From assembly GCF_054482595.1 (NCBI RefSeq), contig NZ_JBTHVH010000001.1: a stretch of DNA of 64,000 nt; one strand, 5' to 3'. Positions 55,510-55,927 of the stretch are shown piece by piece; position 1 is the stretch's first letter, and every line of letters begins with the position of its first letter. The stretch comes from a plasmid. Both the position numbers and the translations under genes were made by a program. The notes below the pieces were generated by a model that was given only the letters and a program-made list of their open reading frames with translations, ran no database searches and was not told where the DNA came from.

Positions 55510-55927
55510 ATTAAGGGTTATTGAATATGATCAATTTACCTGTAAATCCATACAGTTCAATACTGTAGCAGGTCAAATAGTGACCACTTGATCATTTGAT
55601 CAAGGTTGCGCTACGTAAAATCTGTGAAAAATTGGCGGTGTTAGTCCTACAGATTTCGCGTAGCGCACTTAGCACCACCAATCAATCAGAGGTGAAAAAT
55701 GGGATATTCAACTGCTAAAGTGTCCACTCATCTTGAGCTTGAGAAAAACCGTGGTTACTGGCGGGCAAAAGGGTTTGATCGTGATAGTTGCCAACTGTCA
55801 TTATCGCGCGGTGAAGAGAAAATAGAACGCACGCGCGGTCGCTGGCGTTTCTATGACGAGAACCATAAACAGGTAAAGGCAGAGCCGATCCTGTACACTT
55901 TACTTAAAACCATTATCTGAGTGTTAA

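Follow-up and report, generated by a model that had tools for sequence, protein, structure and literature searches.

Introduction

The closest described system to the locus reported here is the cre region of phage P1, where methylation reportedly lowers the activity of the promoter pR1, with a reported rise of approximately 3-4-fold in dam- cells. Related control is found at IS10 pIN and in IS50/Tn5. There, a GATC lies in a promoter hexamer of the gene for a DNA-rearranging enzyme, full methylation keeps expression low, and passage of the replication fork opens a transient expression window. Activities of the hemimethylated state have been measured for IS10 and IS50, and the element ends are methylation-sensitive as well. 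For cre, in contrast, the dam+/dam- difference alone is reported, and loxP itself has no GATC.

A second arrangement is represented by Mu mom (OxyR), agn43 (OxyR), and pap (Lrp). In these systems the GATCs lie in a regulator binding site upstream of the promoter, a competing DNA-binding protein is needed, and the ON and OFF states are heritable. We know of neither a competing DNA-binding protein nor bistability for P1 cre, nor of any indication of them. Elsewhere in P1, methylation is required for protein action, namely cleavage by pacase at pac and origin function at oriR, whereas it is inhibitory at pR1.

The DNA analyzed here is a 64,000-nt stretch of a plasmid (contig NZ_JBTHVH010000001.1), referred to below as the window. 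It carries seven TGATCA/G hexamers, four in one group and three in another, at 49731-49890, which we take to be P1 pac, and five GATC-containing repeats beside a DnaA box at 17346-17402, presumably P1 oriR. Clustered TGATCA-type hexamers spaced 7-15 nt are shared by pac, oriR, and pR1.

Dam-sensitive transcription of cre is a textbook case that dates from 1986 and is recorded in GenBank. The title of Sternberg, Sauer, Hoess & Abremski (1986) gives regulation of the cre region by DNA methylation, and later papers cite that work for "regulation of phage gene expression". Records AF234172 and NC_005856 label two GATCs (sites 2 and 3 below) as Dam methylation sites "within the regulatory region of cre". 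The 1986 record X03453 gives two alternative -35 hexamers for pR1, each TTGATC and each tagged "putative".

Results and discussion

The lox-cre region of the window

In a BLAST comparison of 55300-56000 with phage genomes, the closest relative of the window at lox-cre was phi456 (99%), while P1 (AF234172, NC_005856) matched at 99.6% from loxP on and P7-type elements at 97%. Judged by its sequence, the window represents a P1-like phage-plasmid. The central A of lox, which is P1 coordinate 1, corresponds to window position 55493, and the P1 annotation maps one-to-one with an offset of +55492. The features of the region, and a methyltransferase encoded elsewhere in the window, are as follows.

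55476-55509: loxP, exact sequence ATAACTTCGTATAGCATACATTATACGAAGTTAT (13-bp inverted repeats and an 8-bp spacer)
55529-55532: Dam site 1, the GATC in TATGATCA, 20 nt right of loxP (AF234172, P1 37-40)
55533-55560, minus strand: P2coi promoter, directed leftward across loxP to coi and c1 (AF234172, P1 41-68)
55538-55557: LexA box CTGTAAATCCATACAG, CTGT-N8-ACAG, within P2coi (AF234172, P1 46-65)
55581-55586: degenerate third hexamer TGACCA, one mismatch to TGATCA
55587-55604: palindrome CTTGATCA-TT-TGATCAAG, perfect 8+8, with Dam sites 2 and 3 (window sequence)
55590-55593: Dam site 2 (AF234172, P1 98-101)
55598-55601: Dam site 3 (AF234172, P1 106-109)
55588-55621, plus strand: promoter pR1, also named P3cre (X03453 and AF234172)
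55588-55593 and 55596-55601, plus strand: alternative pR1 -35 hexamers TTGATC (X03453; AF234172 places the -35 at P1 104-109)
55616-55621, plus strand: pR1 -10 TAAAAT (AF234172, P1 124-129; same -10 in X03453)
55608-55666: 59-bp inverted repeat with the core GCTACG...CGTAGC at 55610-55664 (55 nt)
55678-55694, plus strand: CCAATCAATCA block and ribosome-binding site GAGGTG, before the first operon gene (from conservation)
55699-55920, plus strand: cra, 73 aa (ORF list; AF234172, P1 207-428)
55775-55804, plus strand: promoter pR2 (P2cre), inside cra (AF234172)
55892-55916, plus strand: promoter pR3 (P1cre), inside cra (AF234172)
55928-56959, plus strand: cre, 343-aa tyrosine recombinase (AF234172, P1 436-1467)
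20922-23186, plus strand: methyltransferase, 754 aa (Pfam PF00145, C5-cytosine, and PF02086, D12-class N6-adenine, Dam-type)

The original prediction placed a GATC motif between loxP and cre and proposed Dam-sensitive control of cre, and our analysis confirms the first statement and supports the second. The motif TGATCATTTGATCAAGG occupies 55589-55605, with GATCs starting at 55590 and 55598, and lies between loxP (55476-55509) and cre (55928-56959). It sits ahead of the cra-cre operon on the cre strand, and its TTGATC hexamers, each holding a GATC, match the P1 reference together with the TAAAAT -10. The GATC pair corresponds to the annotated P1 Dam sites over the pR1 -35, and GATC in the form TGATCA is retained across diverged lineages. 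A GATC falls inside both alternative -35 hexamers of pR1 and also inside the -35 of pR2, so core promoters of the recombinase gene carry the methylation target. We put the probability that the motif is the Dam-methylated -35 region of pR1 (P3cre), the most upstream of the three cra-cre promoters of P1, at roughly 0.88. The Dam reading is correct yet a rediscovery, because the same GATCs are already annotated in AF234172, NC_005856, and X03453. The "repeat structure" also predicted for 55540-55640 is present but had been under-described, as the LexA box, P2coi, and the left arm of the 59-bp inverted repeat fall in the same interval.

The element is the same as that of the P1 records (X03453, AF234172, NC_005856), identical in its position relative to loxP, cra, and cre and in its motif, -35, and -10. 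The window differs from P1 by a few nearby substitutions and by an extra GATC left of loxP, where P1 has GACC. Most relatives (P7 type) have a third GATC at 55584, which is absent from P1 and from the window.

Five GATCs are present between loxP and the cre start codon of the window. The -35 of pR2 (TTGATC, 55775-55780) holds one at 55777 that is unlisted as a Dam site in the P1 record, and a further one (55887-55890) lies 2 nt upstream of the pR3 -35. The extra GATC at 55470-55473, directly left of loxP (CGGATCTAATAAC), replaces CAGACC of P1 and CGGACC of the P7 type and is rare among the 62 P1-like haplotypes described below.

Conservation of the Dam sites

GATC is not enriched across the whole window (256 observed versus 246 +/- 14 expected), and adjacent GATCs no more than 8 nt apart number 5, compared with approximately 8 expected. 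The bare observation of a GATC pair is within chance, because such close pairs are not unusual in the window. The arrangement TGATCA-NN-TGATCA occurs once in the window, plus an overlapping one-mismatch copy that uses TGACCA at 55581, where 0.2 occurrences are expected with at most one mismatch. The main evidence against chance is, in our view, conservation.

We collected 80 P1-like loci at a Cra identity of at least 96% and built an alignment of 62 distinct sequences covering 55440-55960. All 62 shared the 18 nt TTGATCATTTGATCAAGG without change, while the flanks and the neighboring loop were polymorphic. The haplotype seen most often (53 of 74 sequences) and the majority of the other relatives carry GTGATCAC, and the window and P1 carry GTGACCAC. 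Haplotypes with GTGATCAC have three TGATCA hexamers at 8-bp spacing, with the third GATC at the 55584 position (P7 type).

The comparison was extended to four diverged P1-like lineages (Salmonella, Enterobacteriaceae, Klebsiella, and Cronobacter), in which Cra is 61-68% identical. All four keep loxP, the neighboring TGATCA (the core of Dam site 1), and the LexA box. Two TGATCA hexamers spaced 7-16 nt are retained as well, immediately before the inverted repeat. Neither the sequence in between nor the 18-nt palindrome is kept. These patterns indicate that the methylation target, rather than the dyad, is the feature conserved across diverged lineages. The LexA box, a predicted LexA site, is likewise invariant across lineages as CTGT-N8-ACAG and lies between the -35 and -10 of P2coi.

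Further downstream, CCAATCA of the CCAATCAATCA block is invariant in the diverged P1-like lineages. The block (55678-55688) directly precedes the ribosome-binding site and is conserved in all the P1-like lineages; it looks like a TGATCA repeat in complement, minus a C (TGATTGATTGG).

A model for methylation at pR1

In the model that we favor, two TGATCA hexamers (three in most relatives) overlap the alternative -35 hexamers TTGATC, with the -10 TAAAAT falling in the left arm of the inverted repeat, 14 or 22 nt further downstream. With both strands methylated, by host Dam or by the phage Dam-type methylase, pR1 would be weak. Unmethylated DNA, and probably also hemimethylated DNA behind the replication fork, would be better transcribed. 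A burst of Cre would in this way be tied to replication, when plasmid dimers form and need resolution. We infer, in line with the conventional reading, that methylation impedes RNA polymerase directly at the -35, and that pR1 is activated in the hemimethylated state after replication, in the manner of IS10 pIN. The phage encodes its own methyltransferase with a Dam-type domain (Pfam, 20922-23186). A consideration against the model is that P1 DNA should already be fully methylated when it infects, so that a role at infection is not obvious.

The geometry of the promoter is unusual. Canonical sigma-70 spacing (16-18 nt) is absent at pR1, where the spacers are 14 or 22 nt, and for this reason a generic sigma-70 scan misses the promoter. 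Our generic promoter and terminator scan of 55200-56100 returned no sites. The hexamer spacing is odd and the -10 lies in an arm of the inverted repeat; the methylation mechanism is therefore less settled than the annotation implies.

The inverted repeat beside pR1

The inverted repeat at 55608-55666 consists of GCGCTACG-TA-AAATCTGT, a 23-nt loop, and ACAGATTT-CG-CGTAGCGC. It adjoins the GATC pair, and its left arm carries the pR1 -10, with the -35 hexamers just upstream. Folded as single-stranded DNA it has a z score of -3.6. Among the 62 distinct P1-like sequences the loop varies whereas the arms are unchanged. Searches of Rfam 15 with the P1 region and a Klebsiella homologue found no family, the best E being at least 0.08, far under gathering scores. 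One compensatory change (T-A to A-T) separates the stems of P1 and Klebsiella. In the 111 distinct copies of the repeat among the matches listed, the variable stem positions 7, 8, and 11 change independently of their partners. The repeat is probably functional and apparently undescribed.

Relative to window positions 55661-55664, the right arm in X03453 is 2 nt (GC) shorter, with CGTACCAC in place of CGTAGCGCAC. This gap is probably a compression artefact. The repeat would have been disguised in 1986, because the record of that year was without these 2 nt.

Several other readings of this region were considered. A Frpo-like single-strand promoter, an idea that came from Klebsiella copies near psiA, is not supported, as the 17-bp stem is too short for both a -35 and a -10. 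The arms are unlikely to be a second binding site for Cre, being constant while lox arms differ between systems. A clean inversion of the loop is not established either, since the P1 loop matches the family consensus poorly in both directions. An accessory site for ArgR/PepA was also discarded: the proposed Arg-box lies 97 bp beyond loxP, towards c1, and a published study found that PepA/ArgR do not act on loxP (PMC2409434).

Related repeats in other genomes

Distant BLAST found a 73-nt piece of the region, 78% identical, in over 300 large Klebsiella plasmids, and the Klebsiella block used as the query in turn retrieved more than 1100 Klebsiella plasmid records. The Klebsiella copies form a conserved, unannotated intergenic block of approximately 240 nt, flanked by a DUF1173 gene on one side and, on the other, by a hypothetical gene and then psiA. 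The repeat also occurs in a 92-kb Pantoea phage-plasmid. There, 32 nt separate it from a downstream Cre homologue (42% identity), three GATCs lie on its upstream side, and cra is missing.

A pattern scan of one genome per species yielded at least 132 copies at at least 120 loci, with matches from Pantoea, Erwinia, Rahnella, Mixta, Tatumella, Citrobacter, Alteromonas, Shewanella, and others. Besides window 55608-55666, copies are located at L003 3001-3073, at L089 2501-2557, and in loci L097-L216. Among the matches listed, the span from GCTACG to CGTAGC is 55 nt in 113 of 132 copies and 54-56 nt in 127. The genomic neighborhood of these listed copies is mixed. Forty of the 132 precede a Cre homologue (38-48% identity) by 0-35 nt, and a further 13 are within 2 kb of one, together approximately 40%. 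Seven copies stand ahead of a second tyrosine-recombinase family (251 aa, PF00589) and seven ahead of a cupin, while 75 of the 132 are without a Cre homologue or lox-like site nearby.

In many of the Cre-linked modules, a lox-like site (13+8+13, e.g. CTAACTTCATATAATTGACCTTATATGAAGTTAG) precedes the repeat by approximately 95-170 nt. The interval between the two holds two or three GATCs, frequently arranged around a -10-like TATCAT, or else a GATC follows the right arm. In the 34 distinct modules among the matches listed, GATC is the commonest palindromic tetramer between lox and gene (3.67 versus 1.15 per 256 nt in the same loci), and at least two GATCs are present in 26 of the 34 lox-like/Cre modules (Pantoea, Erwinia, Mixta, and others). 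The GATCs of Pantoea-type modules lie 45-106 nt upstream of the repeat, around a different TATCAT next to lox. The link between GATC and promoter therefore lacks positional conservation, which counts against the model for pR1.

The repeat also has a direction. Cre-linked copies keep TAAAAT or TAAATT in the gene-side left arm and TGAATT on the other arm, a bias that fits with a -10 in the left arm. The loop consensus CCGGGTAATnCCCCTGCTnnTTyyT points in the direction of the gene in 29 of 33 modules among the matches listed.

The typical layout in Pantoea, Erwinia, and Mixta (e.g. L145 139-323, L160, and L195) is a lox-like site, 2-3 GATCs, the repeat, approximately 22-37 nt, and the gene. A TGnTATCAT-like -10 often abuts the lox arm in these modules. 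A promoter with its -35 region over the lox arm would permit autoregulation by the recombinase.

Tentatively, we propose that the repeat (GCTACG-YR-AAWTCTG, a 25-nt loop, and CAGAWTT-YR-CGTAGC) is an undescribed and widespread cis element, present at at least 120 loci in Enterobacterales and Alteromonadales, which, with the cluster of Dam sites by lox, may form an ancient control cassette of Cre-type and some other tyrosine recombinases. P1 pR1 could then be one case of a general "lox - GATC cluster - inverted repeat - recombinase" order, in which a factor or a DNA/RNA hairpin sets the recombinase level; we hold this broader reading to be somewhat doubtful. Papers on the discovery of Cre-type recombinases mention neither the inverted repeat nor methylation. 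Leads that merit following beyond the known element are confined to the inverted repeat and the lox-GATC-repeat-recombinase layout. As GATC clusters and the repeat accompany Cre homologues merely 38-48% identical, they may interest those who mine Cre-type enzymes for genome engineering. The layout may also matter for how plasmid-resolution recombinases stay at low, replication-linked levels.

Alternative explanations of the GATC pair

Methylation might act indirectly. A methylation-reading protein on the TGATCA repeats, the inverted repeat, or both would then set pR1 activity, in place of -35 contacts. Candidates would include SeqA on hemimethylated pairs, a phage protein on methylated TGATCA, and a factor on the inverted repeat. 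The 14- or 22-nt spacers make a simple -35 contact unlikely, and similar TGATCA hexamers 7-15 nt apart form the cluster at 49731-49890 (taken as P1 pac). The arms of the repeat are conserved as sequence and not as pairs, which is the pattern of a protein site, and elsewhere GATC frequently flanks the repeat (CGTAGCgcGATCa). However, no candidate protein was identified, and the repeat arms do not co-vary with the lox arms, so binding by the recombinase is unlikely. The 75 of 132 copies (among the matches listed) without a nearby Cre or lox also speak against this route, and because of them any repeat-binding factor would need to be a general host protein. We consider an indirect route, by any of these candidates, unlikely but worth keeping in view beside direct interference at the -35.

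It is improbable that the GATC cluster instead serves the leftward side or the recombination site, by tuning either how loxP is used or P2coi, and with the latter the SOS-inducible production of the C1 inactivator. Dam site 1 does abut the -10 of P2coi and is co-conserved with the LexA box, the GATC pair lies 30-40 nt upstream of the P2coi -35, and the GATCs of Pantoea modules begin right at the lox arm. Dam sites 2 and 3, however, are outside the P2coi core promoter, and no LexA box was seen in the Pantoea and Erwinia modules, which nevertheless have the GATC cluster. The P1 annotation, and the literature as far as titles and later citations convey it, assign the methylation effect to transcription of cre.

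The perfect 8+8 palindrome at 55587-55604 suggests that the pair could be a by-product of a palindromic transcription-factor site (TTGAT-N6-ATCAA, FNR/CRP-like), with methylation incidental. The FNR consensus is TTGAT-N4-ATCAA, and the spacing here is 2 bp too long for it. In diverged lineages the palindrome is lost, giving way to a direct repeat in L096 (ATGATCAcATGATCA) and to TGATCATTGATCA in L092, while the GATC cores are conserved. With the wrong spacing and an unconserved dyad, an FNR/CRP-type palindrome was rejected as very improbable.

A functionless chance pair is barely credible: close GATC pairs are not rare in the window, but the 18-nt block is invariant across 62 haplotypes, GATC is retained in diverged lineages and 3-fold enriched in homologous modules (among the matches listed), and P1 cre methylation has been the subject of experimental work, as the title of the 1986 paper indicates.

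The cra gene

The original prediction noted a 73-aa ORF (55699-55920), described it as overlapping 55540-55640, and doubted its reality. The ORF exists at those coordinates, but the overlap was wrong, as its start lies 59 nt beyond that interval. It does overlap the downstream part of the cre regulatory region, since pR2 and pR3 are inside it. The doubt was misplaced. The ORF is cra, which matches the family profile phrog_804 across residues 3-73 (E=1e-34), has full-length homologues, and is under purifying selection.

We found 45 database relatives of Cra, including 71-aa proteins 61-68% identical in other genera. Pairwise Nei-Gojobori comparisons gave pN of 0.06-0.27 versus pS of 0.42-0.80, and dN/dS of 0.07-0.34 where computable, with synonymous sites near saturation; these values reflect strong purifying selection. 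Taken together, the comparisons identify cra as a real, conserved gene under selection. No match to Cra was found in Pfam or among PDB sequences, and its AlphaFold model (pLDDT 72) had no Foldseek match better than E=0.85. Both cra and cre are dispensable for plaque formation by CRISPRi (PMC10695390).

A 356-aa gene precedes cra in the diverged lineages, its stop overlapping the cra start, and cre begins 8 nt after cra. The 356-aa gene belongs to a function-unknown family (phrog_7674) and has no Pfam match. In L090-L096 (1188-2716), this ORF and a 68-aa ORF (phrog_19934, 4 of 7 loci) lie between the inverted repeat and cra. Both genes are absent from P1, where cra has the same leader of CCAATCAATCA and ribosome-binding site.

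Names in databases vary. X03453 calls cra "pot. ORF1 (aa 1-73)". Cra homologues (e.g. P0003, P0006, P0007, P0024-P0030, and those of plasmid records H28, H29, and H39) are widely labelled "creatininase" at NCBI, and Cre is named "GST-loxP-cre recombinase fusion protein" in several phage records. Both names look like propagated annotation errors. Correcting the status of cra is of practical value, as a selected gene is currently mislabelled "creatininase".

Other sites near loxP and loxP in other records

Three further sites flank the region. The sequence ATTGCTCTAAT(AA) at 55337-55349, 55416-55428, and 56978-56988 matches the operator consensus of the P1 C1 repressor. Two of the copies are left of loxP in opposite orientations, and one is just after cre, before a c8-like ORF.

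Exact loxP was also present in a "portal protein" gene of Lactococcus phage Q33 (17547-17583) and at the end of a plasmid record from Pseudobutyrivibrio, a rumen bacterium. Both are most likely engineering scars or vector remnants.
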